The notes under the pieces are model-generated. The model was not told where the DNA came from. It was given only the letters and a program-made list of their open reading frames with translations, and did not search any database. 64,000 nucleotides of DNA from a virus (taxonomy: Duplodnaviria > Heunggongvirae > Uroviricota > Caudoviricetes): IMG/VR virus record IMGVR_UViG_2529292828_000009. One strand, given 5' to 3'. Shown piece by piece: positions 32,669 to 63,659 of the stretch. Each line of letters begins with the position of its first letter. The stretch's first letter is position 1. The position numbers and the translations under genes were made by a program.

Positions 32669-32704
32669 TGGTGCGAAGGTGCGAAGGTGCGAAGGCCGGA
32701 CTCG
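32669..32704. repeat. Degenerate copy of the leuX 3-prime end (distal att of the P4-like island), with triplicated TGCGAAGG
   Basis: GGTGCGAAGG TGCGAAGG TGCGAAGGCCGGACTCG matches tRNA-end sequence GAAGGCCGGACTCG. Confidence 0.6.
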
Positions 32705-42897: not shown

Positions 42898-44169
42898 CTA
42901 GATAGTTTTTTTTGCAAAGTCGTAGGGGGTTATATATTCCTGAGTGTTAGCATCAAGATAATCGGCCCACCACTGAACCATTAAACGACGCTCATCCAAA
43001 TGCTCTGAAGTATGAATATAAGCAGCCCTAACGCTATTACGCTCAGAGTGGCTTAGCTGACGTTCTATCGCGTCATCACTCCACAACCCTGATTCGCCCA
43101 AAGCACCGCGCGCCATAGTTCTGAATCCATGCCCGCAAACTTCGGTTTTTGTGTCATACCCCATTGTGCGCAAAGCACTGTTAACCGTGTTTTCACTCAT
43201 AACTTTAGTTGCGTCATGATCTCCCGGAAACAGTAGCTCTTTATCACCACTAATCTGCTTAAGCTGCTCTAACAAAATCATCGCCTGCCGACTAAGCGGA
43301 ACGATATGCTCCTCTTTCATCTTCATCCCACGGTACGAGTAACGGACACCTTTAATTTCTTCTCGTTTTGCCGGTATACGCCAAAGAGATTTATCGAAGT
43401 CGAATTCATCCCAGCGAGCGAAACGCAACTCACTGGAACGCACAAAAGTTAGTAAGGAAAGCTCGACTGCAATCCGTGTCATTAAACGGCCACGATATGC
43501 AGCAAGACGTGCAAGAAACTCAGGGAAACGGTTAGAGGGTAAAGCTGGATAGTGTCGTGCTTTGGTTGTCGATAAAGCACCAGCCATATCACTGGCTGGG
43601 TTTGAGTCGATATAATCGTTCTGTACGGCATAACGCATAATAGCTGTAACACGCTGCTGAAGACGCTGCGCGACGTCATGCTTACCACTGGCATCAACTT
43701 TTTTAATCGGGGCTAACAGGTGGCTTGTTTTAAGCTGGCGGATATCGGACGATCCGATATGAGGGAAGATATAAAGCTCAAGATAGCGAAGAACGCGCGC
43801 TCTATGGTCTTCACTCCAGCGCTTGTTACTGGCATGCCATTCACGAGCGATCGTTTCGAAAGTATATGCCCCCGATTTCTCGGCCTGAGCCGCTTTCTGC
43901 TCGGCTTTTGGATCAATACCCTGCACTAATAATCTTTTAGCTTCATCACGTTTTGCCCTTGCCTGGGCAAGTGTCACAGTAGGCCAAACGCCAAAAGCGA
44001 GGCGATCCTCTTTTTTGTCTGAAGGGCGTCTGTATTTCATACGCCAGTATTTAGATCCCTTGGCCGAAACCTCAAGATACAAACCGCCACCATCGGCCAT
44101 TTTGTAGGTTTTGTCTTTTGGCTTTGCGGTCTCGACCAGTCTGGCGTTGAGCTTCATTTGGGGGCACAT
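42898..44169 (-). CDS. P4-family tyrosine integrase of the satellite island
   Basis: Homologous to the integrase at 62135-63385 (shared AVMRYAVQN, FVRSSELRFARW, VCGHGFR, RAAYIH); probable start MKLNARL at 44157. Confidence 0.85.
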   Translation of the reverse strand: MCPQMKLNARLVETAKPKDKTYKMADGGGLYLEVSAKGSKYWRMKYRRPSDKKEDRLAFGVWPTVTLAQARAKRDEAKRLLVQGIDPKAEQKAAQAEKSGAYTFETIAREWHASNKRWSEDHRARVLRYLELYIFPHIGSSDIRQLKTSHLLAPIKKVDASGKHDVAQRLQQRVTAIMRYAVQNDYIDSNPASDMAGALSTTKARHYPALPSNRFPEFLARLAAYRGRLMTRIAVELSLLTFVRSSELRFARWDEFDFDKSLWRIPAKREEIKGVRYSYRGMKMKEEHIVPLSRQAMILLEQLKQISGDKELLFPGDHDATKVMSENTVNSALRTMGYDTKTEVCGHGFRTMARGALGESGLWSDDAIERQLSHSERNSVRAAYIHTSEHLDERRLMVQWWADYLDANTQEYITPYDFAKKTI

Positions 44170-44320
44170 TTCTAATCGAAGTCAAGATGCCCCTAATTAT
44201 GCCCCCAATGGCATCCGGATTTCAACGGACAATCTCGGACGACTCCGGACATAAGAATCACTGTACTCATTGAATTATAAGGAACAATTGGACTTTCTCG
44301 GATGATCTTGGAAGTGCTAA

Positions 44321-44344
44321 TGGTGCCGAAGGCCGGACTCGAAC
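44321..44344. repeat. 24-bp direct repeat of the leuX 3-prime end (att junction between the two islands)
   Basis: TGGTGCCGAAGGCCGGACTCGAAC identical to 63575-63598. Confidence 0.85.
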
Positions 44345-44691
44345 ATCGCAACTATCCTTATGATCTTTAGTAATTAAAGCAATCTACATTGTCGATGATA
44401 CCATCATTGATACCATCAGACCCGATTGATGATAATCGAACAGTAATAAAATATGACTAAACAATTTATGCTTCAACATAAGATTGAATGCTTTGATCTA
44501 CCATTTTAATGCAGTGGAAAAATTTTTAACACAATACTTAAGAAAAATAATTTCATATAAAAACTACATTTCATTTCATATAGTTAACACACCAAAAACA
44601 ACTGTATATAAACCCAGTAAAAAATGGTAGAATCACTATTGTGTTCAATTGTTGAACATTTATAATACATTTGTCGGATAGGGGGGTGTTT

Positions 44692-45279
44692 ATGCAAAGG
44701 AACACATACAACAAAGTAGGTCTATACATCCTATCTTTAGCTATGCTTTTTGTTTTTATTATTATCCTGACTGCCAAAATCCCCTTTTGCTTCACTTCGG
44801 ATTGTAGCTTCATAGGTTTGAAGAGACTTGTATTAACAAATATTGTTCCTATTGTTTGCTTTGTATTTTTTCTATTTAGTATTTATTTTTATAATAGATT
44901 AAAAAACATAACAAAATACAATGGACAAGATAGCGTTAAAATAACATCATGTCAAAGCGAAAGCTATGAAAGTTTAACATTCTTAGCAACATACATTGTA
45001 CCTTTTATGGGGTTTAGTTTTGAAGACATGCAAAAGAATATAGCATATCTTTTGCTTGTAGTAGTAATAGGCATTATTTTTATTAAAACAGACAAGTATT
45101 ATGCGAATCCAACTTTAGCTCTGTTTGGCTTTAAACTATACAGGGTAAATATACTACACCCAGGAAGTGGAGAAACAAAAAATCTGATAGCTATTTCAAA
45201 TGATGTATTAAAAGTGGACGATAATGTTTATTATAGTTTCTTTGATGAATTTGTTTTTATAGCAAGGAAAAAAATATGA
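44692..45279 (+). CDS. Four-TM membrane protein, KwaA-like (Kiwa defence system component A)
   Basis: Four hydrophobic helices; ATG at 44692 after a G-rich RBS; 4-nt overlap with the downstream gene; call is by architecture only. Confidence 0.45.
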   Translation: MQRNTYNKVGLYILSLAMLFVFIIILTAKIPFCFTSDCSFIGLKRLVLTNIVPIVCFVFFLFSIYFYNRLKNITKYNGQDSVKITSCQSESYESLTFLATYIVPFMGFSFEDMQKNIAYLLLVVVIGIIFIKTDKYYANPTLALFGFKLYRVNILHPGSGETKNLIAISNDVLKVDDNVYYSFFDEFVFIARKKI

Positions 45280-46223
45280 CTACTCAGCAGTTAAAAGAAA
45301 AAATTTCAAAAATAATTGATAACTTTAGCGGAATCAGGGTTGTATTTACTACTACTGCTAATGAACTAAAGCTTTCCAGAATTGAAGGGAGTGCATTAAA
45401 TAGCATAGCTGAAGGGTTTATTGACAAAATCAAAGAAGACATTATAAATAATGAAGATCTCACCTCACCATTGCTGTCCAATTTTGATGATAGAAAAAAT
45501 GCCTTGTTTAAATTTGATTACGAACAATATCCTGAAGAATTTAACAAAATCACTCAGGCCATCGCTATCCCTCCTAACTCACAAGATTATTATAACCCTT
45601 TAAATAAATTCACAGATGTGAAAGGAATTATAATTTTAATAAGTGGAGATAACAAATGCCTGGCTCTTTATAAAAACAAAACTAACCTTGCAGTATTGAG
45701 AAATAGCAGAAAAATGTTTAATTTAGTCCCTGACCCTGATGGATACTTGAAACAACTCCCTAATGAGATATTACGGTTAGATTTCAATTATGATCTATTA
45801 TCAATTGGTGAGGATTTTTACATTAAAAATCACAAGACTCTTGAAACTCAAATGAAATTTCATCAAGTGATTGAAGCCCAGGCAGTTATTGCTTTAAATT
45901 CTTTACGGGATTCACTACTAATTGAAGACATATCAGGTTTAGAAAAGAGTTCGAGAGAAATTTCATTCGCTAGAAAGTTGGCAAAAATCTCCAAACATTC
46001 TCCTGTTTTGGGGAAAATAGATACTAAAACAATTATCGATTATGTATCCCAACATAAATATTTATCTGCAATACTTCAGATTAATGAAGCAGGAAATAAG
46101 TTATTAATTAAAACCAAGACATCACAGAAGCATTTCATTAAACTCATGAGCGATGATTATTTACAATCAGATCTAACTAAAATAATATACATGAGCATAG
46201 CAAAAGACAGATTAGATGAATAG
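45276..46223 (+). CDS. KwaB-like soluble protein (DUF4868-like, Kiwa component B)
   Basis: 315 aa, coupled to the upstream 4-TM protein; call by size and architecture. Confidence 0.45.
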   Translation: MTTQQLKEKISKIIDNFSGIRVVFTTTANELKLSRIEGSALNSIAEGFIDKIKEDIINNEDLTSPLLSNFDDRKNALFKFDYEQYPEEFNKITQAIAIPPNSQDYYNPLNKFTDVKGIIILISGDNKCLALYKNKTNLAVLRNSRKMFNLVPDPDGYLKQLPNEILRLDFNYDLLSIGEDFYIKNHKTLETQMKFHQVIEAQAVIALNSLRDSLLIEDISGLEKSSREISFARKLAKISKHSPVLGKIDTKTIIDYVSQHKYLSAILQINEAGNKLLIKTKTSQKHFIKLMSDDYLQSDLTKIIYMSIAKDRLDE

Positions 46224-46287: not shown

Positions 46288-46959
46288 TCATTCGCGTGCT
46301 TGATTATTTATGCTGGATGTTCTAATTGTTGCCGAATGCCAATACCCACCACTATATGTTCTTGCTATAGTAATAAATCCAGTACAGGTAATTACTGTCA
46401 TTAAAATCAGGAAAATATAATAGAAATTAAGCGGAGCTTTCAAATCAAAAGGAGGTAACGAATACACCAGCAACCCTATCCATACAATAGTTATAAATAA
46501 ACTAATAATTTGGTTTATCTTAGATACTGATATTGGAGATGGACCAGTAAGTAAATGAACCGAAAACTCTTTTATTCCTTTCGGTTTTGCACGAGATAAC
46601 ACCACTTTATATAGTGGACCATTAATATTATCTTCTAACATATCGACATGTTTTTCCCAGTTTCCCTGCCAATATTTACTACCACGGTTAACACAGAGCC
46701 AACCGAATGAAAATACAATTCCCAGTGAACACAGTAATACGGATAAATCTGTCTTAGCTGTAGAAGAGGAAGTCTGTATAGCAACAAAACCAGCTAAAGT
46801 TGCCGCTATAAAAGTCCAGAAATAAGTTGCTCTTTTCCAGTAATGGTCTATCTCATATTTCCGTATATCTAAAGCCTGTAGCAGAGCATTCTTATTACAG
46901 TCTCTATCATTAAGAAAACGGCTACGATATTCCTCATCTGAAAATGGAGTAATTGGCAT
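46288..46959 (-). CDS. Orphan multi-TM membrane protein with a SLATT-like N-terminal arrangement
   Basis: Charged helix, then TM pair (YFWTFIAATLAGFVAI ... LSVLLCSLGIVFSFGWLCV), then two further C-terminal TM helices; no match recognised. Confidence 0.5.
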   Translation of the reverse strand: MPITPFSDEEYRSRFLNDRDCNKNALLQALDIRKYEIDHYWKRATYFWTFIAATLAGFVAIQTSSSTAKTDLSVLLCSLGIVFSFGWLCVNRGSKYWQGNWEKHVDMLEDNINGPLYKVVLSRAKPKGIKEFSVHLLTGPSPISVSKINQIISLFITIVWIGLLVYSLPPFDLKAPLNFYYIFLILMTVITCTGFITIARTYSGGYWHSATIRTSSINNQARE

Positions 46960-46985: not shown

Positions 46986-47013
46986 AAAAGAGGGGTCCCC
47001 CCCCCTCTTTTTT
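46986..47013 (-). terminator. Rho-independent terminator at the 3-prime end of the RM gene
   Basis: AAAAGAGGGG (46986-46995) / CCCCTCTTTT (47002-47011) stem with flanking T-run. Confidence 0.55.
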
Positions 47014-50000
47014 AGTTATTTTTAAACAAAACCTTTACTATTCCATCTATATCCCTTAGGAAACTCTCGAAAGAGGATCTATTAGCCTTAGCTTCATGAG
47101 CCTTTTTTGAAAGTTCAGACAGCTCACGATGCTTTTTATTACCTTCATCATAAAGAGGAACATTAATTGGAGGTCTGATTTTAAAAGTTCTGCTATCACT
47201 GGACTTCAGAATGTACTCCCCAGTGATTGATGAGTTAAAAATAGCACAAATGTAATGTGCCTCATCCAGGGTAATAAATTTACCATCTTGCCTCTGAGAT
47301 ATACTCACAGCATGGTTCTGAAATAAAGGTCTCTTTTTGTCACCCCATGGAGTATCCATTTGACTCACAACTGCTGCTGCCCATTTAGTGTTATCACGAA
47401 AACAAACAAAATGATCACCATAAGTATATTCACCTACACGAGCCAATGCGTAAAATGCAGTAATATTGCTTTTACCTATGATTTTGTCATTGTATCGAGT
47501 CTGCGACTCTAATAACTGTTTATTATTAATGAAATAGTCAGCCAACATAGGGCTTTCTTTAACAAGCTCATCTACAGGTATCGGTTTACGACTCAATTCT
47601 CTATATGGAAAGGGTACGAAGAACTCAACATCTTTTACCCCAAAAGGTTCAATATTTGTTCCTTTAATCAGGGGGTATATATGCTTGGTTTCAGCAAAAA
47701 TCATTTGTTTTGCCACTTTATACTTAGACTTGCCACCCTGATAATTTTCAAAAATTGCAGTGTTGTTAGCTTTTTTTGTCTTAAATTTCCATAAGAATAA
47801 TTCTTGAGGGAAAAATTCAATCCCTTCCCTGCCATGATATTCGCAATATCCACTGATATTTCTGTAATCATTGAGTTTTTCGGAATCTGAAGCATATGTA
47901 AAGGCTGTATTGCTTACACTAACAGTGCCAGCGATCTCTTTACGGATAGAGAACTCATGCGAAATAGCATTAAAATGCGTATGCTGTGAGTAGCTATCAA
48001 GGCTTCTTCCGGTTTTATTTTTCGTCAAAAATGTTAAAGGTATCCCTTTTAAATAATCGACATTTTTTGACGAGAATAAATAAGTCGCAAACTTGATTGT
48101 AACAGGCTTGAATGGATGCCCGGATTCACTCCAGTCGTATACCTCTTGGAGATATAGTTTTTGGTTATCCCCAAAGTTAAACTCTCGAAATCCTTCATAT
48201 GTTTGCTGGAAAAGGATATTTTGAGGCATAAGGAATGCCAATATGCCATCTTTCTCTAACCAGTTTTCAGCAGATACATTAGAAATTAATGCACAAATGT
48301 TAAGGTTTATACCACCAGTAAGCCTATCACCAGAAAATAGGCTCCTACTTAAGCATAAGCCTTTAATTCGTTCTCGATATCCTGCAGGTAAATTTTTCCA
48401 GTCAATCCATGGTGGATTACCAACAACCATATTAAATTTGCCTAAGTTTGCAGTGGTCAAAAAATTAGTGACTATTCTAGCCCAAATTCCATTCCAGTCT
48501 CTTTCTTCTAGTTCGACAAACTTATCTGATAAAGTTTTTAATTTTTCATAAATGCTAGGAGAACTACTAATATCCCCACTTACTTCGATTAATTTTGCAA
48601 AAACACTATCACGATCTCGAAGTTTAATATATCGTTCAATATCAACAATTGCTTTTGAGAACTTATGAGAATCACTCAAAGCTTGAGTAGGCATCTCGAT
48701 ATAAATCGAGCCTTGCAAAGTATTTATTTCGTATCGCAAACAGTCAATGCCATCAATTATGACCTTTTCTGGAACATACGATGCGTCACCAAGATAAATT
48801 GGAATTTCAACTTCGCTACCTTCATCAAGCAAATGTGATATATTGATGAAATAGTTGATTCTTGCAGTTAAAGCTGCAAGAGGATTTAAATCAATACCTT
48901 TGACAGATGTTATGACATCTTTTAATTTAGCTTTGCTATCAGTATGAGTACGACTCAGAACTTTACCTATTAATGTAATTATAAAGGTTCCGCTACCACA
49001 ACATGGATCAATTGCAGTCCAGTTGTTCTTATTTACAACATGCTCTTCAGCAGAGGATATCAAATGCTCTGCAAGCCATTCAGGAGTGTAAAATTCTCCA
49101 AGAGAATGTCTTACTTTATCAGGAATAATGTTCATGTATAGATCTTTGAAAAGATCGTATACTTTTTCACCCTCTTTGAAAAGGTTTCCTTCCTCATATT
49201 CACTTAGTAATGAAAATATATTTTTAATACTAATGAATATATCATCTCCCCATTGTTCCTTAGTACAATACCAAGAGAAAAAGTCACCTTCCAGCAGGTT
49301 CAAAATCCCATACTTCCTGAAAATAGCACCTTCTTCTAATGTGTATAAATAGTTTCTCATTGATTCAGAGTTACTATTGATCATATCTGAAAAATTATAA
49401 TCATTTTCAAATACAAGTCCAGATAATGTTTTATAAGCTATTATTTTTACAATAATCGCATATGCAGTCTGGAGAGCATAAAGAACTTTATATTCATCAT
49501 CGTTAGTAAGTAACCTATGACCAGCAATATCTTCAAGTGATAACTTTCGTTCTAAAATTGCTGTTTGCTGAGATTTATCATCATGTGCAAGTCTAAATAG
49601 CTCCTTCCATTCGTTGAAGAGCATTTGAGAGCGGCCCGTCATGTTATTTTCAAGAGCCGAAAGAAGATTACCTATTAATTGAGTTGTTAAAGATGGAGAT
49701 CCATAGCAAAAATCATCAACGATGTTTTTTGGATGCAATGCCTTCTTATTCAAAAGAACTAAAAGCCCGCAAATTTTTTTAATTGCATTCTTATCAAGCG
49801 GTTGCAACTTTGATGTTAAAATGCCATCAGTATCACGAATAAGGTAATTAATACCGTCTGTTAGCACTCCAACATAGCGTTGATTCCCTTCTAACTTTAA
49901 AGAATCAAGGTAAGCCTGGATTTGAAGCACAGCCTTATTAATATCATTATCTTTTTTTAATTTCTCTCTATGCTTAAACTCTATTACTAAAGATCCAATA

Positions 50001-50290
50001 CGACTATCGATACGCCCCTTACTGTTGCTTCTGCCGGTCGTGTTGTATTTAATACCATCAATAAAAATTTCTTTTTCGGGACGGTAATCAATACCAATGA
50101 AATCTTTAATGAAAGGAATAAAAGCAAGGTCGAAACCAGAAACAACTTCTGCTTCATTTTTGGCTAAATATGAGGACTCATTAATTTTTTTAGATATAAT
50201 ATCAGCAGCTAAAAGAAAATCTGAGTCAGTAACAATCTTTTCTTGAGCTTTGAACTTAATTTTTTTTTGAATTTCTTCTAACACAGCCAT
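47012..50290 (-). CDS. Type IIG restriction-modification enzyme, MmeI-like (PD-ExK nuclease + N6-adenine methyltransferase + target recognition)
   Basis: N-terminal IDSRIGSLVIEFK (D...ExK), SAM motif DPCCGSGTF, catalytic VGNPPW; 1092 aa in one polypeptide. Confidence 0.65.
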   Translation of the reverse strand: MAVLEEIQKKIKFKAQEKIVTDSDFLLAADIISKKINESSYLAKNEAEVVSGFDLAFIPFIKDFIGIDYRPEKEIFIDGIKYNTTGRSNSKGRIDSRIGSLVIEFKHREKLKKDNDINKAVLQIQAYLDSLKLEGNQRYVGVLTDGINYLIRDTDGILTSKLQPLDKNAIKKICGLLVLLNKKALHPKNIVDDFCYGSPSLTTQLIGNLLSALENNMTGRSQMLFNEWKELFRLAHDDKSQQTAILERKLSLEDIAGHRLLTNDDEYKVLYALQTAYAIIVKIIAYKTLSGLVFENDYNFSDMINSNSESMRNYLYTLEEGAIFRKYGILNLLEGDFFSWYCTKEQWGDDIFISIKNIFSLLSEYEEGNLFKEGEKVYDLFKDLYMNIIPDKVRHSLGEFYTPEWLAEHLISSAEEHVVNKNNWTAIDPCCGSGTFIITLIGKVLSRTHTDSKAKLKDVITSVKGIDLNPLAALTARINYFINISHLLDEGSEVEIPIYLGDASYVPEKVIIDGIDCLRYEINTLQGSIYIEMPTQALSDSHKFSKAIVDIERYIKLRDRDSVFAKLIEVSGDISSSPSIYEKLKTLSDKFVELEERDWNGIWARIVTNFLTTANLGKFNMVVGNPPWIDWKNLPAGYRERIKGLCLSRSLFSGDRLTGGINLNICALISNVSAENWLEKDGILAFLMPQNILFQQTYEGFREFNFGDNQKLYLQEVYDWSESGHPFKPVTIKFATYLFSSKNVDYLKGIPLTFLTKNKTGRSLDSYSQHTHFNAISHEFSIRKEIAGTVSVSNTAFTYASDSEKLNDYRNISGYCEYHGREGIEFFPQELFLWKFKTKKANNTAIFENYQGGKSKYKVAKQMIFAETKHIYPLIKGTNIEPFGVKDVEFFVPFPYRELSRKPIPVDELVKESPMLADYFINNKQLLESQTRYNDKIIGKSNITAFYALARVGEYTYGDHFVCFRDNTKWAAAVVSQMDTPWGDKKRPLFQNHAVSISQRQDGKFITLDEAHYICAIFNSSITGEYILKSSDSRTFKIRPPINVPLYDEGNKKHRELSELSKKAHEAKANRSSFESFLRDIDGIVKVLFKNN

Positions 50291-50899: not shown

Positions 50900-51157
50900 A
50901 TGCCAGAAATAGATAGGCAGGGAGGTTTGGCTTTCTACATGTACTTTTTCGATACGGGAAAACATCATGTTCCTCATGTACATGTAAAATTTGGCGAATA
51001 TGAATTGGTTTTAAGTATAGCGGATGCCCAAGAACTCGCAGGATACTTACCCGATAAATGGAGAAATAAAGCAAGAAAACATGTATTAACAAATAAACAG
51101 AAACTTAAGAAAATGTGGGTTCTCGCCGTGAATGGAAAACAGCCAGGAACTATCTGA
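50900..51157 (+). CDS. DUF4160-family protein
   Basis: MPEIDRQGGLAFYMYFFDTGKHHVPHVHV N-terminal signature. Confidence 0.6.
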   Translation: MPEIDRQGGLAFYMYFFDTGKHHVPHVHVKFGEYELVLSIADAQELAGYLPDKWRNKARKHVLTNKQKLKKMWVLAVNGKQPGTI

Positions 51158-51170
51158 AGAGGAGAGATTT

Positions 51171-51671
51171 ATGAGCAGAATTATAGACTTAGATATTATT
51201 GATGATTTTACTTTGCAGTTAACCTATGAAAGTGGTTTGTCTGGAAAATTTAACTTCTTTAAATATCGTGATTGCGAAGTTTTTAATAATCCTAAAAAAT
51301 TCCAGAAATTTGCTTTGCTACCTACTGGTGATCTCGAATGGTTAGGGGGCGAACGAGTTACTTCCTTAGAACTGTTAGATAAACTTGTTAATATAAGCTC
51401 TACTGAAAAGAGTAATATTTCAGGCACCACCGACATACTCATGATGGCGTTTCAAGATGCTGTTCGTGAAAATAGACCACAGATTATTCAGGCAGCTTTG
51501 CGAGCTATGCTTGATAAGCATGGTGTAGCAAATGTTGCAAATATGACAAATGGAAGTAGAACAAGTATTTATAAGTCCCTAAGCGAAAATACTAATGTAT
51601 CTATGTCTACTGTTATTAACCTTGCTCATAGTGTTATGGAAATTGAGAAAAAAGAAAAAGAAATATATTAA
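51171..51671 (+). CDS. DUF2442-like domain fused to a C-terminal HTH (antidote-like) domain
   Basis: MSRIIDLDIIDDFTLQLTYESG start after an AGGAGAG RBS; C-terminal LRAMLDKHGVANVANMTNGSRTSIYKSL HTH. Confidence 0.5.
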   Translation: MSRIIDLDIIDDFTLQLTYESGLSGKFNFFKYRDCEVFNNPKKFQKFALLPTGDLEWLGGERVTSLELLDKLVNISSTEKSNISGTTDILMMAFQDAVRENRPQIIQAALRAMLDKHGVANVANMTNGSRTSIYKSLSENTNVSMSTVINLAHSVMEIEKKEKEIY

Positions 51672-52013: not shown

Positions 52014-52418
52014 ATGGAAGATATAAAAAACAAAGAAGACATTTCACCATCTACAGAAGTCAGGCTCTTCACCCCCACCATGAAAAAAACTTCTAAAGTG
52101 CATCCCAACGAGCGGAGATTACACTGTGTCAGTGTCCGATTAAATAAAAAAGAGTTAGAGAAGATTGAAGAACTCAGGGGTCGTTACCGTAGGGGAGAAT
52201 GGCTGCGTATGGTGTCGTTAAGCAAACTTCCTCCATTGATCCCAGAGATAAACAAGGATGTCTGGATCATGTTGGGGGAAATATCGCAGAAACTTAATCG
52301 TCTGATAGTACATCTGGATTCTAAAACCAGTGACAGCCCTCTGACTAAGACAGAAGCTTATGCAGTCAAAAAACAACTTCATGAGCTTCGTTTAAGCCTG
52401 ATAACTTCTCGTCCATAA
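52014..52418 (+). CDS. MobC-like relaxosome accessory protein
   Basis: 134 aa basic protein immediately upstream of the relaxase; RRLHCVSVRLNKKELEKIEELR. Confidence 0.5.
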   Translation: MEDIKNKEDISPSTEVRLFTPTMKKTSKVHPNERRLHCVSVRLNKKELEKIEELRGRYRRGEWLRMVSLSKLPPLIPEINKDVWIMLGEISQKLNRLIVHLDSKTSDSPLTKTEAYAVKKQLHELRLSLITSRP

Positions 52419-52430
52419 AAATTTCTAATT

Positions 52431-53621
<1,191 letters not shown>

Positions 53622-53845
53622 ACAGCTAGTTGTAAACACCTTTCGTAACCTAACTCAATTGCTTAGTAATAAATTTGTGTTTAGTCAAGAAAATATTGAT
53701 CGTTATTACAGATCGATAATCTAGTTATGATAGACAATAACTATCAAGTAACAATCATCGATCGGTACAAGCAATTTTACTAAAGCGAGTCGGTCATCGA
53801 GAATCTCTGTAAACGCACCATTTAATCTGCAACCCTGGGGTTGAT

Positions 53846-54118
53846 ATGAAAGACGAAACAATAAAGTGCCCGTTCTGCTTTACACAAAGTCCTCATGGTG
53901 TGCGGATTTGCAAAGGGTGTCATGCAAAGGTTGCTTACGGTGAAAGCCCGCTCAGTGTGGCATTCCTGTTTCAATTCGTGGCATTTGGTCTCGCGTGGTT
54001 AGCATTTTCGTGGACCGACAGCACTCTTGTATCAGTCATTACGTTTTTCGTAAGCATCATTATTCTTATCTATAAAATCAAAAGAATGTATGCAGACAGA
54101 GTTGTTTTTATACGGTGA
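53846..54118 (+). CDS. Small membrane protein: N-terminal zinc ribbon + two TM helices
   Basis: CPFC...CKGC followed by two hydrophobic helices. Confidence 0.45.
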   Translation: MKDETIKCPFCFTQSPHGVRICKGCHAKVAYGESPLSVAFLFQFVAFGLAWLAFSWTDSTLVSVITFFVSIIILIYKIKRMYADRVVFIR

Positions 54119-54159
54119 AATTAATTTCACACAATCGCAAACATAAAATGAGAAAGTAA

Positions 54160-54546
54160 ATGAACCGATTTATAACGTCCTCTTTTTTTATTATTGTCTT
54201 CCTGCTTTCTGGCTGTTCAACATCAGGGAACCAGAACCTTAAAAACGAAACACCACAAAGCCTCCAGTCAAAGATCATTAAAAACAAAACAACTAAGACG
54301 GAATTACTCTCTAAGTTAGGTGAGCCTGATACAAGAACCACACTCGATGACGGAAATGAGCAGTGGAAATATTTCATGACTAACAATCAGTTCAGTGCAA
54401 CGACTTTCATTCCAGTTGTGGGGCTGTTTACTGGCGGTTCCCAAACTCAGTCTAAAACTCTTGAAATCGACTTCAAGGGAGAGACTGTAAGTAAATGGAC
54501 TTTTTCCTCTGACAATAACAACACCAAAACTGGAATTCTTAATTAA
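54160..54546 (+). CDS. Predicted lipoprotein
   Basis: Signal peptide with lipobox LLSGC. Confidence 0.5.
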   Translation: MNRFITSSFFIIVFLLSGCSTSGNQNLKNETPQSLQSKIIKNKTTKTELLSKLGEPDTRTTLDDGNEQWKYFMTNNQFSATTFIPVVGLFTGGSQTQSKTLEIDFKGETVSKWTFSSDNNNTKTGILN

Positions 54547-54553
54547 TTGTTTT

Positions 54554-54880
54554 TTGGATAAGAAAATGAAAATATACTCAATTATCACAGTTATCATTAC
54601 CACCTTCCTTCTAACCGCATGTAACAATGAACCATCGCAAGACGATATATACAATGTTTTCAAAAGTGTTGTAGATAGAACAAATACAAGTATGAAAGCT
54701 CTTGATTCAAGAGTTACAGAAAAAGATCTTTTAAGAATCGATTACGTGAAGAAAGTTAGTTGCACAGAAGAAGCAAACAATGTTTATAACTGCATTGTCG
54801 ATGCCTCTATTAGTAATATGAAACAAACAAAACCAGTAAAACTAATCAAATCTGATGGTGTCTGGAAAGAAGTTCAGTAG
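54554..54880 (+). CDS. Predicted lipoprotein
   Basis: Signal peptide with lipobox LLTAC. Confidence 0.5.
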   Translation: MDKKMKIYSIITVIITTFLLTACNNEPSQDDIYNVFKSVVDRTNTSMKALDSRVTEKDLLRIDYVKKVSCTEEANNVYNCIVDASISNMKQTKPVKLIKSDGVWKEVQ

Positions 54881-54930
54881 TAGCCTATATCAAGAAGTCT
54901 TTTAGCCCCTGCACAGGGGCTTTTTATTGC

Positions 54931-55365
54931 CTATAACCTGACGGTTCTTACGCGAACGTCATAGGTTAACTCTTTCTCAATTACTTTCATTTCATATTGT
55001 GCTTTGACAGTAGCAGAGATTTCTTCTGCTTTTTCTTGATTATTATCGATGTAATTAACAAGCGAGTTTAGCTCCCTGATAACAGCATCCTTATTGTTTA
55101 ATCTTTGTAGTAGATTGCTTGTAAGACTTTTGTATACCGAGCTAAACATAGTCATTATGTTATCAATATTACGATTGGATTTGGAATAAATCCTTTCAGG
55201 GTAGAAATACTTCAAATGGTATCCCACAAAAATTAAGTAAAGCTGGTATGAGAAACTTTTATCACCTGGCTGGTATCGTTTTGAGATATATTTATCGACG
55301 ATAATGATAAGTTGCTCTTCCAGAGTAAACTCTGGATAGATAATGTTTTTGTCCATAAAATGCAT
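54931..55365 (-). CDS. Hypothetical protein
   Basis: 144 aa ORF, AT-rich codon usage, no motif recognised. Confidence 0.35.
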   Translation of the reverse strand: MHFMDKNIIYPEFTLEEQLIIIVDKYISKRYQPGDKSFSYQLYLIFVGYHLKYFYPERIYSKSNRNIDNIMTMFSSVYKSLTSNLLQRLNNKDAVIRELNSLVNYIDNNQEKAEEISATVKAQYEMKVIEKELTYDVRVRTVRL

Positions 55366-55853: not shown

Positions 55854-57728
55854 TTAATTATTCAAAAGCTTATTAATTCTTTCCAAATTTTTTTCATGGT
55901 GTTGCAACCATTTGTCTGCACCATAATCACCATTTTCATAAGCGATCTGAGTTATTCTCTTTAATTGCATTACTTTCTCTCGGACAGATTGCAGTCTAAT
56001 TCTATCTACTGAGTTAATGTCCGGTGTTTCATTATCACATTCAATAAGATGATTAATTTTTGCACAAGGCTTGATTAAATAGTTATGTACACAGTAACCA
56101 AATTCAGTTAAGTGTATTGCACCTTGATTAAGGTTATCAAAATCAATTGTCAGTTCATTTGTGGGTATTGACTCCCTTTGACAGTAATTACTCCTATTCA
56201 ATTTAATAGCTTTGATTTTATCTAACATATCTTCTTCCGACACATGGTTATAAACTCTGTTCTGATTCGCATTGATACGACCAGACCATTTAGCTATATC
56301 CAGTTCAGACATTTCACCATAATGGGCTATTGTGTTTAAAAGGTGCCGTGGCTGGTGTGAGCGAATAAGTAGTGGTTTACCTTCATCATCATAATATCCA
56401 TATCGGGAAAATATATTTTTATAATTCATCTCATAGCTTTTTTTTCTTTGTATGTCACTGAAAAAGAAACTTTTAGTAGGCTTATAAAATGTGAAAATTG
56501 AAGTCATTCTTGATAAAGAAAATTGATCAGTATTGAGCAAGCATAAAGCATTACTAAATTTTATGGATTTTTCTTTATCATACCATGGAAAGTCTCTGCT
56601 AAAATTAGAACTAATAATTTCCCACAAATCACTCAATGAATAGTTGTAATCATTGTGGTTTAAGAAGCTTTTCCCACCATCCAAACTCGTTCTTTTAATT
56701 TTTAAAACACATGATTTATGATCAAATAAATGATATCCCAGTGCATGGCAAACTTGTACAACGGTCAATTTAGCTTTTTCATCAACTGTTGGGCAAAGCT
56801 CATGTCGGTAAAATTTATCCGGGTACTTTTCGCACCAGTGAGCAAGTGCTCTTGCATTTTGTGATAAGGAAAGTAATCTTCTAATCGCTTTCTTTGCAAC
56901 TGGTATCATAACCCGTGGAATCCATTTGATATTAGGGCCATACCCTTTTACCGAATAAAATCTCAAACCATATCTTTCGATACCCTTGCCATCTATTTGT
57001 GTAATCTCACAATCAGCAGGTAAGGCTAAAATTTCAGAAATTCTGCTCGGACAACAAAGTAGAAGTGCAAATACTGAACTGGTGAACTTATCCCTTGGAC
57101 TCAGTAACTCATCATTTTGAGAAAAAATATCAGCAATAGCGAGCAATGCTTCTTCATCTGGTAACTTATCGCTTCGGTGATAATCCTCAATCTCAGGAAG
57201 ATAATTGTTTTTGACTTTCTGTTTTACATGGTTTTTCCATGAGATATATCCTGACTTCACAAGATTATGTTCACACAGAAACTTTGATATTTTTTCAAGC
57301 TGTATTCCACATTTAGCCAAAACGTTACCTTCAAAATATTTACTCCCGATCTGCATTGCCTCATCGAAAACAACGGCTGTAACATTATAAATGAGACCAG
57401 TGTTCTGAACCTGCAAAAGGGCCTGTTCGAGACATCGCAAGGCCATCATAATAACCCCATAATTTTTCAATGGTTTCAATGTGTGTTGATATCTGATATA
57501 TGCTTTCGCAAAATTGATATAATCTTCGTGCATTGCATCAATGGAATCAAAGATTTTATTTCCAATCCCTATTTTTCTAAATGTGACATATCCTTTCCAG
57601 GCATACTGCTCCCAATCCTGAGTTTGGGTTAGTCCGGACAGTTGATAGCGACAAAATTTTATGAACTCATTATAATTTTCTTCTACAAGAATATGTTTTT
57701 TTGATTTGAACAAAATAATATTATTCAT
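55854..57728 (-). CDS. Tyrosine recombinase-like protein, third of three (624 aa)
   Basis: C-terminal SHQPRHLLNT ... NQNRVYNHV pattern; ATGA overlap with upstream gene. Confidence 0.5.
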   Translation of the reverse strand: MNNIILFKSKKHILVEENYNEFIKFCRYQLSGLTQTQDWEQYAWKGYVTFRKIGIGNKIFDSIDAMHEDYINFAKAYIRYQHTLKPLKNYGVIMMALRCLEQALLQVQNTGLIYNVTAVVFDEAMQIGSKYFEGNVLAKCGIQLEKISKFLCEHNLVKSGYISWKNHVKQKVKNNYLPEIEDYHRSDKLPDEEALLAIADIFSQNDELLSPRDKFTSSVFALLLCCPSRISEILALPADCEITQIDGKGIERYGLRFYSVKGYGPNIKWIPRVMIPVAKKAIRRLLSLSQNARALAHWCEKYPDKFYRHELCPTVDEKAKLTVVQVCHALGYHLFDHKSCVLKIKRTSLDGGKSFLNHNDYNYSLSDLWEIISSNFSRDFPWYDKEKSIKFSNALCLLNTDQFSLSRMTSIFTFYKPTKSFFFSDIQRKKSYEMNYKNIFSRYGYYDDEGKPLLIRSHQPRHLLNTIAHYGEMSELDIAKWSGRINANQNRVYNHVSEEDMLDKIKAIKLNRSNYCQRESIPTNELTIDFDNLNQGAIHLTEFGYCVHNYLIKPCAKINHLIECDNETPDINSVDRIRLQSVREKVMQLKRITQIAYENGDYGADKWLQHHEKNLERINKLLNN

Positions 57729-59029
57729 AGTTGATTCACCTCACTGCGATCAATCGGAATAAAAAACATACATTGATTGCAAGGAAATCCTGAATTCTGA
57801 CTCTGGCATCTACTTGAAGAAAAAAATTTGAAATGACTACTCTTTTTCGATTTGATTCCGTTCATAAAAATATCAGCGACAAATGACAATTGTTCTGAAA
57901 CAGCGGAATCAATCCTTTCAACACTGTCAGCATGATTTTTAATATAAATCCCCGCACTTGAAGTAGATGAATGATCCAATAATTCAGCTATAGTATTAAC
58001 ATTATGCCCATTCTTAGCCAGCATAGTTGCTATTGTATAACGAAGCCTACGAGGAGTAATATTTAGTATCGAACCGGTACGGTTGGATATTACATTCCCA
58101 TTATTAACAATACTTTTCAATGCTACATTAGCAATTGTAGGCTTCGCATATAATTTATTATATTCCAGAAGAATTGAACCTGTTATGGATAAATCTGAGA
58201 GTTTTTCCTCATTTAAGAAAATAGGAACTTCTCGTTTAGAATAATCATCAAGAGTTTTTCCAAGAGCTTGTTCAACAAGTTTCACTGATTGATTAGCTTG
58301 CAATTGAACAATTGATGCAACCTCTGATATTATTGCAAGTTCTCGATATCGTAGTTCTTTACCCCGTTGTTTTACTCGTGGCACTGAAATTACATATTCT
58401 ACTTTGCCATTATCTAAGTTCTTTTGAAGAAGGTCTTTATATTTCAACATAACTAACTGCTGAGGTCTTCTACCTGTAAGACTGATCAATAGTGATATTG
58501 CATAATGTGGCAGTGACAGTTCACCTTTTCTATATGCATGATTCATAGCCTTAATCAAAGAAGTATGTTCTTCTTTATTTAATGGTCCCTCTGTTGGATC
58601 ATCTTGAAGCACAGACTGACCAGATTTTTTTATTTTTAGGTCCAAATGCTTTAACAGTTCTACCGCACTTTCATCTATTCCCGGATATCCTAACTCAAAC
58701 CATTTAATCAAAAATGGTCGTAAAACGCGAAATGATGCTGGGGCTTTTGATAATTTCTTATTTTGATATTCAATTAGAACCTTATCATCAATATGAGTAG
58801 GAGATAGTTTACGGATAAGACTCTCCATATTTCTAACAATATTTTTCACATACAAATAGCTGTTGCTATTAAAATAATATTGTACTGTATATACAAACCC
58901 ACAAACCAAATTTTCGTTCATAGCATATATTAAGTTTGTAAGATTGATTCCGTTATTTTCAATCGAACTGACGACTTTATGTTCATGCAAAGACATTTTA
59001 TCAGATTTATTTTTAATTAAATTATTCAT
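57725..59029 (-). CDS. Tyrosine recombinase, second of three
   Basis: LTGRRPQQL ... RRLRYTIATMLAKNGHNVNTIAELLDHSSTSSAGIYIKN; start MNNLIKNK overlapping upstream stop by 8 nt. Confidence 0.6.
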   Translation of the reverse strand: MNNLIKNKSDKMSLHEHKVVSSIENNGINLTNLIYAMNENLVCGFVYTVQYYFNSNSYLYVKNIVRNMESLIRKLSPTHIDDKVLIEYQNKKLSKAPASFRVLRPFLIKWFELGYPGIDESAVELLKHLDLKIKKSGQSVLQDDPTEGPLNKEEHTSLIKAMNHAYRKGELSLPHYAISLLISLTGRRPQQLVMLKYKDLLQKNLDNGKVEYVISVPRVKQRGKELRYRELAIISEVASIVQLQANQSVKLVEQALGKTLDDYSKREVPIFLNEEKLSDLSITGSILLEYNKLYAKPTIANVALKSIVNNGNVISNRTGSILNITPRRLRYTIATMLAKNGHNVNTIAELLDHSSTSSAGIYIKNHADSVERIDSAVSEQLSFVADIFMNGIKSKKSSHFKFFSSSRCQSQNSGFPCNQCMFFIPIDRSEVNQL

Positions 59030-60224
59030 CAAATTCTCCTTTGAATAGTTGCTCTTGTTGTTCAAGTGCAGTTTTTTTCGATAGCTCATAAATATGCCTG
59101 CGATTATAAATCATTGAAGTTTCTGAACCCGGTCGCCATCCCATGAGATAAGAACGGATTTGTTGCTCTTTTTCATCGGATATGTCCTGATTCTTGTCTA
59201 TTGCTTTCGAAAACTCATAATTCCATGTATGTCTGAGTTTGTGACCTGTCAATCCCCCTAGAAGTGAGGAGGATTGACGAACAACACTCACCACTTTGTG
59301 ATATGAAGAAAATGAAATAGGTTGCCCTTGAGTTTTTCCTTCCTTATAAGTAATAAACAGGAAATCATGTTTGTTAGAATTTTTTATGTTTCTTCGATCA
59401 TTCAGAATATAATCTGAAATTTCAAACATGAGCTTTTTATCAGCAATTAATTTCCTCTCACAAGTTTTAACTAAAGGCTGATACACTCGCGGATCTGTTT
59501 TATCATTTGCTCTTCTTCTTATTGCAATTGTCGATTCTGCAAAATCTATATCACCAATTCGCAGATTCAAAAGTTCACCTGCTCTCAGGCCAAAGCAGTG
59601 TAATAGCAGGAATATTAGATTGTTTCTTTTTTGCACTTTTTCTGAAAAAGGATTTAATTTGCTACCCGGTGCAAGAATGCTAAACAAAGAATCCAATTGT
59701 TCATTATTTAAACTTTTTTCTATATCCATATTATATTTATCATTATTTCTCGGTTTCTTTCGTTTTATGTTGTTAATGAAATCTAAAATATATTTGAGAG
59801 TATCCTTCTGTCCTGTATGAGAAAGATGTATTTTGCACAGCCATTCCAGATAGTTAGCTATGGTTGTTATCCGAAAGTACTTAGTTGGTTTTTTGACATT
59901 TGAACTTCTAAAATTATCATTCTCGCCATCTCGAAAATTGAATGAAGTGAATTCGATCAAATCTTCAATTTCATGAGGAGCCAGAAATATCCTTTTCTGA
60001 ATTCTTTCATCAATATTGATCTCTTTCCTCATAAAGAATCGATATAACAATGAAATGCTACCGGCAATAACCTTCATTGTTGATATAGACTCTGACCGAT
60101 TCCTGACCTGTGTTGTTATATACAAGTTAGGATAATACAATGGTTCACCAGTATTTTTATTTACGATATGACAATATCTCTCACCATTTTCGAACATAAA
60201 AGAATCCACACAAATACTACGCAT
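59022..60224 (-). CDS. Tyrosine recombinase, first of three
   Basis: GLRAGELLNLRIGDID ... GHKLRHTWNYEFS ... MIY catalytic-domain pattern. Confidence 0.6.
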   Translation of the reverse strand: MRSICVDSFMFENGERYCHIVNKNTGEPLYYPNLYITTQVRNRSESISTMKVIAGSISLLYRFFMRKEINIDERIQKRIFLAPHEIEDLIEFTSFNFRDGENDNFRSSNVKKPTKYFRITTIANYLEWLCKIHLSHTGQKDTLKYILDFINNIKRKKPRNNDKYNMDIEKSLNNEQLDSLFSILAPGSKLNPFSEKVQKRNNLIFLLLHCFGLRAGELLNLRIGDIDFAESTIAIRRRANDKTDPRVYQPLVKTCERKLIADKKLMFEISDYILNDRRNIKNSNKHDFLFITYKEGKTQGQPISFSSYHKVVSVVRQSSSLLGGLTGHKLRHTWNYEFSKAIDKNQDISDEKEQQIRSYLMGWRPGSETSMIYNRRHIYELSKKTALEQQEQLFKGEFDE

Positions 60225-62134: not shown

Positions 62135-63385
62135 TTAAGTCTTTTTAAAATCAAATGGTGAAACTTGTCGTATTCTAAGGAGGTCAAGGTAATCGGCCCA
62201 CCACTGCAACATAAGCTTTCTCTCATCAAGGTGCTGTGCTTTATGTATGTAGGCAGCACGAACTGAGTTCCGCTCCTGATGGCTCATTTGCCGTTCAACA
62301 GCATCTTTCGACCACAAGCCGGATTCAATCAAGGCACTACAAGCCATAGCCCTGAATCCATGTCCACAGACCTCCACGGTTGTGTCATAGCCCATAGCTC
62401 GCAAAGCTTTATTAACTGTGTTCTCGCTCATAGGTTTGCGGAAATTATGATCGCCAATAAATACGAGTTCATGGTCACCACTGATCTCTTTGATTTTCGT
62501 CAGCACAGCCAATGCCTGACAACTCAAAGGAACAAGATGTGGAGTTCGCATTTTCGAACCACGGTGCGAATGTTTGACCCCTGGCAATGGTTCGCGTTCT
62601 CCAGGGATAGTCCACATCGCATTTTCAAAGTCGATCTCCGACCATCTTGCGAATCTGAGTTCACTGGAACGAATGAAAATGAGCAATGTAAGCTTTACGG
62701 CTAACTTAGTGAGTTTTCTACCCTTGAAGCTATCTATTCGTTCTAAAAGTTCTGAGAATCGTTCGAATGGCAAAGCTGGCCTGTGGACTCTTTTAGCTAC
62801 CGCAATAGCTCCTGCCATCTCTTGAGCAGGGTTGTAATCTATCAGCCCGTTCTGGACAGCATATCGCATCACTGCCGTTGTTCTTTGCTGTAGGCGGGAA
62901 GCAACTTCCAGTCGCCCAGAAGCTTCAACAGCCTTGATAGGGGCAAGAAGATCTCTGGTATTAAGCTCGGATATTTTTCTTTTACCAATAGCAGTAAAGA
63001 GACCATCTTCCATGCTTTTTAGAACTCTCTCGCTATGGGAATCTGACCATTTCCTTTTACAAGCCTTATGCCAGTCCCTGGCAACAGATTCAAAAGTAAG
63101 AGCTTCGCTCTGCTCGATCTTGTCTGCCTTTTTCTTCTCGGAAGGGTCGATACCATCAGATACCAACTTTTTAGCCTCATCTCGTTTCCTGCGAGCTTCA
63201 CCAAGAGAGACCATTGGATAAACACCCAATGCTAAAACTTTCTGTTTGCCATCGAAACGGTATTGGAGTCGCCAGTATTTTGAACCATTGGGGTTGATCA
63301 GCAGGTGCATACCCTGCCCATCTGTGAGTTTGAAAGGTTTGTCGGAGGGCTTGGTAGTCCTAACTTTGATATCGGTGAGAGCCAT
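62135..63385 (-). CDS. P4-family tyrosine integrase adjacent to leuX
   Basis: 416 aa; homologous to the integrase at 42898-44169; lies directly 3-prime of tRNA-Leu. Confidence 0.9.
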   Translation of the reverse strand: MALTDIKVRTTKPSDKPFKLTDGQGMHLLINPNGSKYWRLQYRFDGKQKVLALGVYPMVSLGEARRKRDEAKKLVSDGIDPSEKKKADKIEQSEALTFESVARDWHKACKRKWSDSHSERVLKSMEDGLFTAIGKRKISELNTRDLLAPIKAVEASGRLEVASRLQQRTTAVMRYAVQNGLIDYNPAQEMAGAIAVAKRVHRPALPFERFSELLERIDSFKGRKLTKLAVKLTLLIFIRSSELRFARWSEIDFENAMWTIPGEREPLPGVKHSHRGSKMRTPHLVPLSCQALAVLTKIKEISGDHELVFIGDHNFRKPMSENTVNKALRAMGYDTTVEVCGHGFRAMACSALIESGLWSKDAVERQMSHQERNSVRAAYIHKAQHLDERKLMLQWWADYLDLLRIRQVSPFDFKKT

Positions 63386-63574
63386 CAGTTGATACCTCCA
63401 GTGTTGGTACCAAAATCAATCGAACCGGGAATACCATCAGTTATACCATCATCGGTTGGTATATGTTCAAGGAACTGAGTAGACGTGAACAGACTAAGCC
63501 AAGTTAGAAACCTGCTTAACTTACTGTTTTTATGGACTAAAGTAGACGTTAGTAGACTTAAAAAAAGCTTTGTA

Positions 63575-63659
63575 TGGTGCCGAAGGCCGGACTCGAACCG
63601 GCACGTATTTCTACGGTTGATTTTGAATCAACTGCGTCTACCGATTTCGCCACTTCGGC
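63575..63659 (-). tRNA. leuX: tRNA-Leu (leuX-type)
   Basis: Reverse complement reads GCCGAAGTGGCGAAATCGGTAGACGCAGTTGATTCAAAATCAACCGTAGAAATACGTGCCGGTTCGAGTCCGGCCTTCGGCACCA. Confidence 0.9.

Follow-up and report, generated by a model that had tools for sequence, protein, structure and literature searches.

What do three small envelope genes do directly behind the relaxase gene of a mobilizable island? We met this question in a 64,000-nt stretch of DNA (IMG/VR virus record IMGVR_UViG_2529292828_000009), referred to at its full length as the window, in which ORF1, ORF2 and ORF3 lie within a 19.2-kb integrative mobilizable element. A first-pass annotation had described a zinc-ribbon protein with two transmembrane segments, followed by two lipoproteins (lipoboxes LLSGC and LLTAC), and had proposed a role in entry or surface exclusion or in phage resistance. 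All three genes were found on the plus strand where it had placed them, their motifs and lipoboxes were seen, and the mobile setting was borne out. Our comparison suggests that the trio is one filling of a slot for envelope cassettes, driven by a candidate OxyR/Dam phase-variation switch located between relaxase and ORF1. The explanation that we favour, in which this switch-driven operon raises a barrier to incoming DNA, has as a whole a probability of roughly 0.4.

A conserved block ahead of ORF1 resembles OxyR/Dam switches

The 224-bp spacer between relaxase and ORF1 holds a conserved regulatory block with three sites, A, B and C, and a predicted promoter (Table 1). For comparison, we took 40 loci with a related relaxase gene from genomes representing their species and scored the neighbouring genes. 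The block is the only non-coding DNA kept across this family, even where the relaxases are just ~50% identical, and it is kept whatever gene follows; the region upstream of mobC showed no conservation across the family loci. Its geometry is identical in 34 loci and shifted by 1 nt in three more (37/40); neither the non-enterobacterial relatives nor truncated contigs have it. Among complete E. coli genomes it is present in 382 of 5426 (~7%), always on the chromosome and always unannotated. Three GATC sites, at 53698, 53711 and 53760, fall within 66 nt and form the sole cluster of three within 70 nt across the window. They are invariant across the 34 fixed-geometry loci, as is GATCGGTACAA of site C. 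Among 33 distinct versions of the block, the GATC sites and the specified half-site positions are nearly invariant, while the N positions of site B drift. For site B, full 10/10 agreement was seen in 12 of the 23 variants listed and again in two of the scanned loci; 9–10 of 10 positions agree in 18 of the 23, and 8/10 in the others. The site centres are spaced 31 bp apart, and B and C sit at about -74 and -43 of the predicted promoter, whose -35 (TTTACT, TTGATA, TTGCTT or TTGCGT) and -10 (nAnAAT) positions are kept in all variants.

This layout is paralleled by opvAB of Salmonella enterica, an operon that sets O-antigen chain length. In both, half-sites of the consensus ATAG-N7-CTAT alternate with weaker ones containing GATC, about 31–32 bp apart, and the last half-site abuts the -35 element. 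The paired half-sites of opvAB are separated by 32 bp, with OBSC at -75 and OBSD at -43 (PMC4856963), compared to about -74 and -43 for B and C; opvAB has four half-sites and four GATC sites, whereas the present block has three and three. Site A agrees with the published gtr OxyR site GATCGTTTATATCGATC (PMC7708049, Table 2) at 13/17 positions in the window and at 16/17 in many family members, and the same gtr site is also found in the K-12 agn43 switch. From the same table, the comparators for site C are gtr GATCGGTAACAACGATC and opvAB OBSD GATCGATATAACCAGT, the latter at -56 to -42, and gtr has a GATCGGTA... site that resembles site C. The window block and the K-12 agn43 switch are identical at 25/32 positions, a score matched by 0/500 shuffles and 0/500 random island segments; because agn43, gtr and opvAB were picked as comparators after the GATC cluster had been noticed, these statistics are supportive and not a formal proof. 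The agn43 sites are placed differently, downstream of the transcription start, and OxyR is a repressor there. Taking motif, spacing and conservation together, we consider it likely that the block is an OxyR/Dam phase-variation switch of the agn43/gtr/opvAB type.

A different role for the block would follow if the trio served mobilization, with ORF1 anchoring the relaxosome like MobB, the lipoproteins adapting a helper secretion system and the block acting as oriT. The block indeed has long inverted repeats followed by an invariant stretch, as oriT sites do, and upstream of mobC no conserved candidate oriT was found. However, it matches OxyR/Dam sites position by position, inspection by eye revealed no RP4-type ATCCTG nick motif in it, and a similar region, with a 10/10 half-site and clustered GATC, is found in E. 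coli A28 at a distance of ~5 kb from a disrupted relaxase. Single-strand folding of the block is unremarkable (z = -1.35), and we therefore read its inverted repeats as protein-binding sites rather than structured RNA.

The genes behind the predicted switch form an exchangeable cassette

In the Enterobacterales loci, a small membrane protein is encoded downstream of the relaxase, on the same strand; it can be ORF1, a 222-aa membrane protein or a DUF4755 protein, the last with one or two N-terminal helices. At locus L015, no small membrane protein comes after the relaxase. Next come up to two ORF2-type or ORF3-type lipoproteins, or none. The cassettes seen comprise ORF1 alone, ORF1 with ORF3, an ORF3-like protein alone, DUF4755 with an ORF3-like protein, DUF4755 or the 222-aa protein with an ORF2-like protein, and DUF4755 alone. 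Since every partial combination occurs in related elements, and relatives of ORF2 stand alone in phages, the trio is not an obligate unit.

The alleles that fill the slot are discrete and shuffled. In the group of loci with relaxases ~50% identical, ORF1 is kept at ~80% (56–57% in two loci), ORF2 at ~72% and ORF3 at ~39%, and two close relatives with relaxases at 75–76% have an ORF1 that is just 40% identical. When the window is compared to the locus of enterotoxigenic E. coli (ETEC) H10407 (L001), synonymous divergence (dS) is 0.63 for the relaxase vs 0–0.05 for ORF1–3 and the downstream backbone, which places a recombination junction between relaxase and ORF1 (53621–53846). Beyond the cassette, the convergent 144-aa gene is present at 43–96% identity in every ORF1 locus that retains sequence past this point, locus L049 being uninformative as it ends inside ORF1. 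All three ORFs are real genes under purifying selection, with pairwise dN/dS values of 0.08–0.23 (0.11–0.21 for ORF1) at informative divergence, defined as dS >= 0.15; two near-identical pairs with the ETEC locus yielded 0.20 and 0.41, the higher value belonging to ORF1. The genes are separated by 41 nt (ORF1–ORF2) and 19 nt (ORF2–ORF3).

The trio does follow the relaxase, as initially described, but the link is positional only: the genes have their own conserved predicted switch and promoter, a recombination junction sets them apart from the relaxase, and ORF1 types do not track relaxase types. These observations, together with the variable cassette content and the occurrence of ORF2 relatives in phages, make a set of mobilization accessories very improbable and an oriT role of the block unlikely, in spite of the place immediately 3' of the relaxase. 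As judged from the compared loci, the trio is instead one filling of a presumably switch-driven envelope-cassette slot, and not a three-part machine or a relaxase accessory.

A pair of DUF4755 and ORF2-like genes is also present in an unrelated tRNA-Ser island of E. coli A28 (L051 12497–13379), where it is preceded by a GATC-rich region with a 10/10 OxyR half-site (L051 12200–12370). This may be a second, independent switch-plus-cassette locus. The same island carries type IV pilus genes, and its disrupted relaxase, located ~5 kb from the pair, is of the MobQ type. Nothing relevant emerged from literature searches on DUF4755, on BamE-like prophage lipoproteins or on an OxyR/Dam switch at a locus of this kind.

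ORF2 has a predicted BamE fold and relatives in prophages

The first-pass annotation had considered none of the three proteins recognisable by motif, which needs correcting for ORF2. The protein matches PHROG 3135 with an E-value of 5.9e-24 (residues 9–124 on 8–112 of 114), a phage protein family of unassigned function, and an exhaustive search collected 1104 representative clusters of small lipoproteins of ~125 aa, in which the lipobox Cys is at least 90% conserved. Against Pfam BamE (PF04355), ORF2 itself scores 14.7 bits, the curated cut-off being 23.2, and 74 of 87 diverse relatives match this family at E <= 0.01 (best 5.5e-10). The AlphaFold (AF2) model of ORF2 has a pLDDT of 87. Its top fold matches in the PDB are BamE chains (probability 0.99, TM 0.42/0.57, with 0.57 on BamE length), and its top viral fold matches are phage SmpA/OmlA lipoproteins. 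By lipobox and modelled structure, ORF2 is a lipoprotein with the BamE/SmpA-OmlA fold.

ORF2 resembles BamE, a lipoprotein of the BAM complex, in its lipoprotein nature and in the two-helix plus three-strand fold, but the identity is only 13–22%, the strands of ORF2 are longer, and a conserved hydrophobic FIPxVGLF loop, modelled with low confidence, is not covered by the solved BamE chains. In the two E. coli chromosomes that we read, housekeeping bamE is situated between recN and smpB. Homology to a housekeeping lipoprotein had been named at the outset as an outcome that would speak against an accessory function; given the low identity and the location of the gene inside a mobile island, sequence comparison identifies ORF2 as a mobile paralogue and not as the orthologue of housekeeping BamE.

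The BamE fold nevertheless offers an argument for a phase-variable factor for the surface or for fitness with no bearing on DNA entry, acting for example in adhesion or aggregation, in resistance to serum, bile or envelope stress, in antigenic variation or, as a BamE mimic, in modulation of the BAM complex. The closest E. coli switch, agn43, drives an aggregation adhesin, and prophage lipoproteins made from lysogen-expressed slots include serum-resistance factors such as Bor. On the other hand, the three proteins are very small and have no adhesin-like or enzymatic domain, the cargo around them is anti-phage defence, and an identity of just 13–22% to BamE argues against BAM modulation. We regard a factor of this kind as unlikely.

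Matches to the ORF2 family by tblastn were obtained in seven phage genomes. In the lambdoid phages PhiR26_1 and S107, a homologue of 45–47% identity shares its strand with cI and lies 3' of it, directly in PhiR26_1 and two small genes away in S107, thus taking the same cI-adjacent slot as rexAB in lambda. We also scanned viral contigs with a single phage homologue of ORF2 as query; in ~47 of the 80 contigs carrying a homologue, it directly follows a same-strand gene for a cI-type repressor, accompanied by a divergent Cro-like gene. In other contigs the homologue is found beside KilA-N or antirepressor genes, or ahead of the tape measure gene. Burkholderia F-type plasmids have an ORF2 relative near a TraG-N gene. 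From these contexts, ORF2 can be seen as a stand-alone gene expressed by host-resident mobile elements, and for ORF2 only we lean toward phages over conjugation as the predicted target. A further gene for a small secreted protein or lipoprotein is often located just 3' of the phage homologue (L101, L102, L105, L115, L119, L126), which suggests that prophages carry small arrays of envelope genes, too.

The position after cI also bears on the idea that the trio provides orphan immunity to toxins that act on the envelope (colicins, type VI effectors or contact-dependent inhibition, for example). Small periplasm-facing lipoproteins combined with a small inner-membrane protein would fit such immunity, as would discrete, shuffled alleles on a mobile element. 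But no cognate toxin gene was found nearby, no immunity family was matched, and a place after phage cI is better suited to superinfection exclusion, so that toxin immunity appears improbable.

ORF1 and ORF3 belong to enterobacterial families of predicted envelope proteins

ORF1 carries the Cys motifs CPFC (residues 8–11) and CKGC (residues 22–25), followed by two hydrophobic helices (~35–55 and 60–76) and a basic C-terminal tail. According to the positive-inside rule, both termini should be cytoplasmic and the periplasmic loop should measure about four residues. The Pfam DZR match (E 0.006) is under the cut-off. The family comprises 59 clusters, and every source naming an organism belongs to the Enterobacterales; in the Escherichia ruysiae homologue (L016 9380–9652) the first zinc-ribbon Cys is lost (RFPFC) and the rest is intact. 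Outside this element family, ORF1 relatives reside on plasmids, save for one weak partial phage match. Distant full-length homologues (29–34% identity) are found on enterobacterial plasmids of 24–45 kb, amid small hypothetical genes and methylases. On the Citrobacter plasmid p56322CZ_1, for instance, the homologue (~5001–5273) belongs to a long series of small hypothetical genes, all on one strand and accompanied by two DNA methylases, and the 24–45-kb plasmids are typed as non-mobilizable. One Salmonella "plasmid" sequence, OX345050.1, was set aside: it is a linear 3.6-kb contig with an ORF1 fragment and a relaxase 51% identical to that of the window, and is probably a piece of a related island and not a real plasmid.

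For ORF3, an alternative start at TTG 54554 would give 108 aa; homologues begin at ATG 54566. Its family numbers 311 clusters, of which the named ones among those listed are all from Enterobacterales, and it is limited to this element family, with no relatives on plasmids or phages. Pfam, NCBIfam and the PDB likewise gave no match. The motif SEPS after the lipid-bearing Cys is invariant, as are two more Cys residues, consistent with a periplasmic disulfide. No support was found for the NCBI label "cell wall-binding protein". The AF2 model is unreliable (pLDDT 50), and the PDB profile matches returned for a diverse ORF3 alignment were designed helical repeats only, which we judged spurious.

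The lipobox Cys is invariant or almost so among the relatives of both ORF2 and ORF3. Asp at position +2 is the established signal that retains lipoproteins in the inner membrane; with Ser at this position in ORF2 and Asn in ORF3, both are predicted to be sorted to the outer membrane. An envelope location of the ORF1–3 products is, in our view, very likely.

A barrier to incoming DNA as a tentative function

Our model for the locus would run as follows. ORF1–3 would form one operon of the 19.2-kb element, transcribed from its own promoter under the OxyR/Dam epigenetic switch. Host OxyR would occupy half-sites in alternative pairs, A+B or B+C, and Dam would methylate GATC in the site left unoccupied, so that carriers would fall into heritable ON and OFF lineages. 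Transcription would be activated when OxyR occupies site C beside the -35 element. ON cells would then make the inner-membrane zinc-ribbon hairpin protein and the two outer-membrane-sorted lipoproteins, one of them with a BamE fold. The three products, probably acting independently of each other, would alter the envelope in a way that hinders DNA delivery by phage infection and/or conjugative entry. As far as the sequence allows one to judge, the island probably alters the host cell surface in only part of the population.

That the products form a barrier to DNA entry is a conjecture somewhat short of even odds, to which several lines of reasoning lead. The known OxyR/Dam switches drive horizontally acquired surface functions, opvAB for example trading virulence for phage resistance (PMC4652898). 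The phage relatives of ORF2 occupy a lysogen-expressed immunity operon, and the element is otherwise packed with anti-phage systems (Kiwa and a type IIG enzyme). Pairs of an inner-membrane protein and an outer-membrane lipoprotein, or single small lipoproteins, are also the usual form of conjugative-exclusion and receptor-blocking factors. Allele types that are discrete and independently shuffled were counted in favour as well.

A narrower proposal confines the function to conjugative entry or surface exclusion, the trio keeping related elements or helper and competitor plasmids out of a cell in which the island already resides, in the manner of TraS/TraT, EexA/EexB, TrbK, MbeD or Sfx. It draws on the position next to mobC and the relaxase, on the layout of an inner-membrane protein plus outer-membrane lipoproteins, and on precedent: an exclusion lipoprotein, Sfx, is documented on integrative mobilizable elements (PMC11493245), and trbK is carried by elements of the PIME type. 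The families fit in part, with ORF3 confined to this element family, the other relatives of ORF1 on plasmids bar the weak partial phage match, and relatives of ORF2 near TraG on Burkholderia F-type plasmids. Yet none of the three shows homology to exclusion proteins; TraT gave no match, and the matches to TrbK (E 0.078, on residues 7–27 only) and TraV (E 0.017, on the N-terminus only) cover just the signal peptide. In addition, ORF2 relatives occur in phage immunity regions without conjugation genes, related small mobilizable plasmids lack the trio, shutting out helpers would hinder the spread of the element itself, and the known exclusion genes are constitutive. We thus consider an exclusion function restricted to conjugation doubtful.

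A number of points weigh against the favoured explanation, beginning with the late choice of comparators described above. The promoter is a prediction with weak hexamers, and another LysR-type regulator could use a T-N11-A box, OxyR binding being deduced from motifs. Surface exclusion of the Sfx type is expressed constitutively, at odds with a phase-variable design (PMC11493245). ORF1 has almost no periplasmic exposure, and ORF1–3 belong to the conserved backbone, not to the variable defence cargo. Finally, scans of Pfam, NCBIfam, PADLOC and PHROGs returned no exclusion, superinfection-exclusion or defence family for ORF1–3: no component profile of PADLOC 2.0 matched any of them at E <= 0.1, the matches in NCBIfam and PHROGs beyond PHROG 3135 were weak and at the level of the signal peptide, and those in Pfam were sub-threshold. 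We therefore infer the function indirectly. Of the initial proposal of an exclusion or phage-resistance unit, the general idea of an envelope-acting accessory is supported, with Sfx and trbK as precedents on integrative mobilizable elements.

The island and its surroundings

A pair of exact repeats bounds the 19.2-kb element at tRNA-Leu (Table 1). From the tRNA inward, the gene order is P4-type integrase, a DUF6387 gene, the three-gene recombinase block, two small minus-strand genes and ORF1–3, then relaxase, MobC-like gene, the DUF4160/antitoxin-like pair, the type IIG enzyme, 8xMP and Kiwa. Part of the element family lacks the recombinase block, whose 624-aa gene matched no family, RefSeq labelling the product a DNA-binding protein. 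Relaxases of small mobilizable plasmids, pGNB2 among them, share 41–47% identity with that of the element. Related E. coli elements, integrated at ssrA or tRNA-Leu, carry other defence cargo (AAA plus phospholipase D; Abi plus TOPRIM; Hxs; a nuclease plus a UvrD helicase). The element is a compact, defence-carrying integrative mobilizable element. We do not class it as a PIME, a group whose core comprises integrase, alpA, repA and trbJ/trbL according to the defining paper, since neither repA nor trbJ/trbL was seen among the scanned genes or in the RefSeq annotation of related elements, the small ORFs at 60.2–61.2 kb lying outside the scan. No homology to K-12 CP4-57 genes was found either.

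The relaxase contains a (Pro-Ala)n linker repeat (~53240–53300), and the protein varies from 395 to 439 aa among relatives. The single Rfam match, Afu_254 at 53191–53351, falls inside the relaxase gene at this repeat, which probably explains it, and was discarded as spurious. Further left in the window, a partial third copy of the att repeat (32690–32703) and a second P4-type integrase (42898–44169) indicate a tandem array of islands at tRNA-Leu. The left-hand neighbouring island has its own integrase and holds a SIR2-like gene and a HerA-like helicase gene (39843–42859), which may constitute a SIR2-HerA defence pair.

Table 1. Coordinates of the ORF1–3 locus, its regulatory block and the surrounding island (positions in the window).
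Feature	Position	Strand	Remarks
Distal att repeat	44320-44344	+	25-bp exact direct repeat; partner 63574-63598 in tRNA-Leu 3' end
Kiwa (KwaA/KwaB)	44671-46223		defence cargo
8xMP octameric membrane protein family member	46288-46959		
Type IIG restriction-methyltransferase	47012-50290		1092 aa
DUF4160 + HI1420-like antitoxin pair	50900-51671		
MobC-like gene	52014-52418	+	mobilization module
MobA/VirD2 relaxase	52431-53621	+	Pfam PF03432, E 5e-23
Conserved non-coding block (predicted OxyR/Dam switch and promoter)	~53683-53805	+	conservation across loci
Site A GATCGTTATTACAGATC	53698-53714	+	holds a pair of Dam sites (13 nt apart) and overlaps a 7/10 OxyR half-site
Site B ATAGACAATAACTAT	53730-53744	+	OxyR half-site, 9/10 vs ATAGnTnnnAnCTAT
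Site C GATCGGTACAAGCAAT	53760-53775	+	third Dam site within 8/10 OxyR half-site; abuts predicted -35
Predicted sigma-70 promoter	53776-53804	+	-35 TTTACT 53776-53781, 17-nt spacer, -10 GAGAAT 53799-53804
ORF1	53846-54118	+	90 aa; predicted inner-membrane hairpin protein, N-terminal cytoplasmic zinc ribbon
ORF2	54160-54546	+	128-aa lipoprotein, predicted BamE/SmpA-OmlA fold, lipobox LLSGC, Cys19
ORF3	54566-54880	+	104-aa lipoprotein from ATG 54566, lipobox LLTAC; orphan family
Intrinsic terminator	54904-54921	+	closes ORF1-3 operon
Convergent gene	54931-55365	-	144 aa, function not assigned; co-inherited with ORF1-type cassette
Three-gene block	55854-60224	-	two overlapping tyrosine recombinases + 624-aa gene
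P4-type integrase of element	62135-63385		
tRNA-Leu(CAA)	63575-63659		site of element

Relation to known systems and significance

To our knowledge, OxyR/Dam phase variation is established essentially for agn43 of E. coli and for gtr and opvAB of Salmonella. Like ORF1–3, opvAB is a small, AT-rich, horizontally acquired operon of membrane proteins. Its products OpvA and OpvB, however, are unrelated inner-membrane proteins that shorten the O-antigen, whereas the present locus includes outer-membrane-sorted lipoproteins and, unlike opvAB, resides on a mobilizable element beside a relaxase. The gtrABC genes of P22-like phages and Salmonella, and agn43 of E. coli, provide examples of OxyR/Dam phase variation on mobile or prophage DNA, as proposed here; they encode glycosyltransferases and an autotransporter adhesin, respectively, unlike ORF1–3.

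With regard to the gene products, F TraS/TraT, R27 EexA/EexB, RP4 TrbK and IncC Sfx consist of an inner-membrane protein plus an outer-membrane lipoprotein, or of one small lipoprotein, with genes close to those for transfer. Comparison of ORF1–3 with TraS/TraT, EexA/EexB and TrbK detected no similarity in sequence or profile, Sfx being outside this comparison. The known exclusion factors are moreover constitutive, and each is part of a defined secretion system or directed at one. Cor and Llp, small lipoproteins made by lysogens that block later infection, are alike in type to the ORF2 relatives; the match to Cor (phrog_1119) had E-values of 0.035–0.13, with no aligned stretch. Overall, judged by sequence, the regulatory element is probably a further member of the agn43/gtr/opvAB kind, and the trio represents uncharacterised families that match neither TraT, TrbK or Cor nor the PADLOC models. 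In the searchable literature, we found no description of a conserved epigenetic switch beside the relaxase of defence-carrying mobilizable islands that drives interchangeable envelope cassettes.

If our explanation is correct, it would add a switch family that is carried on mobilizable defence islands by ~7% of the complete E. coli genomes and also occurs in many other Enterobacterales. The switch would be the conserved part and the envelope genes behind it would be swapped, pointing to a general cassette system for population-level surface variation. A more far-reaching version, which we hold to be rather unlikely, is that a portable OxyR/Dam switch, fixed by the relaxase in a widespread family of such islands, drives bistable, interchangeable cassettes that gate DNA entry, a form of bet-hedging exclusion by a hitch-hiking element; in that event, most host cells would be closed to phages and plasmids, and a minority would stay open, for example to the helper plasmid that the island needs. 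Three uncharacterised families of small envelope proteins would also gain a concrete and inexpensive experimental handle, one of them the BamE-fold lipoprotein that is common in prophage immunity regions.

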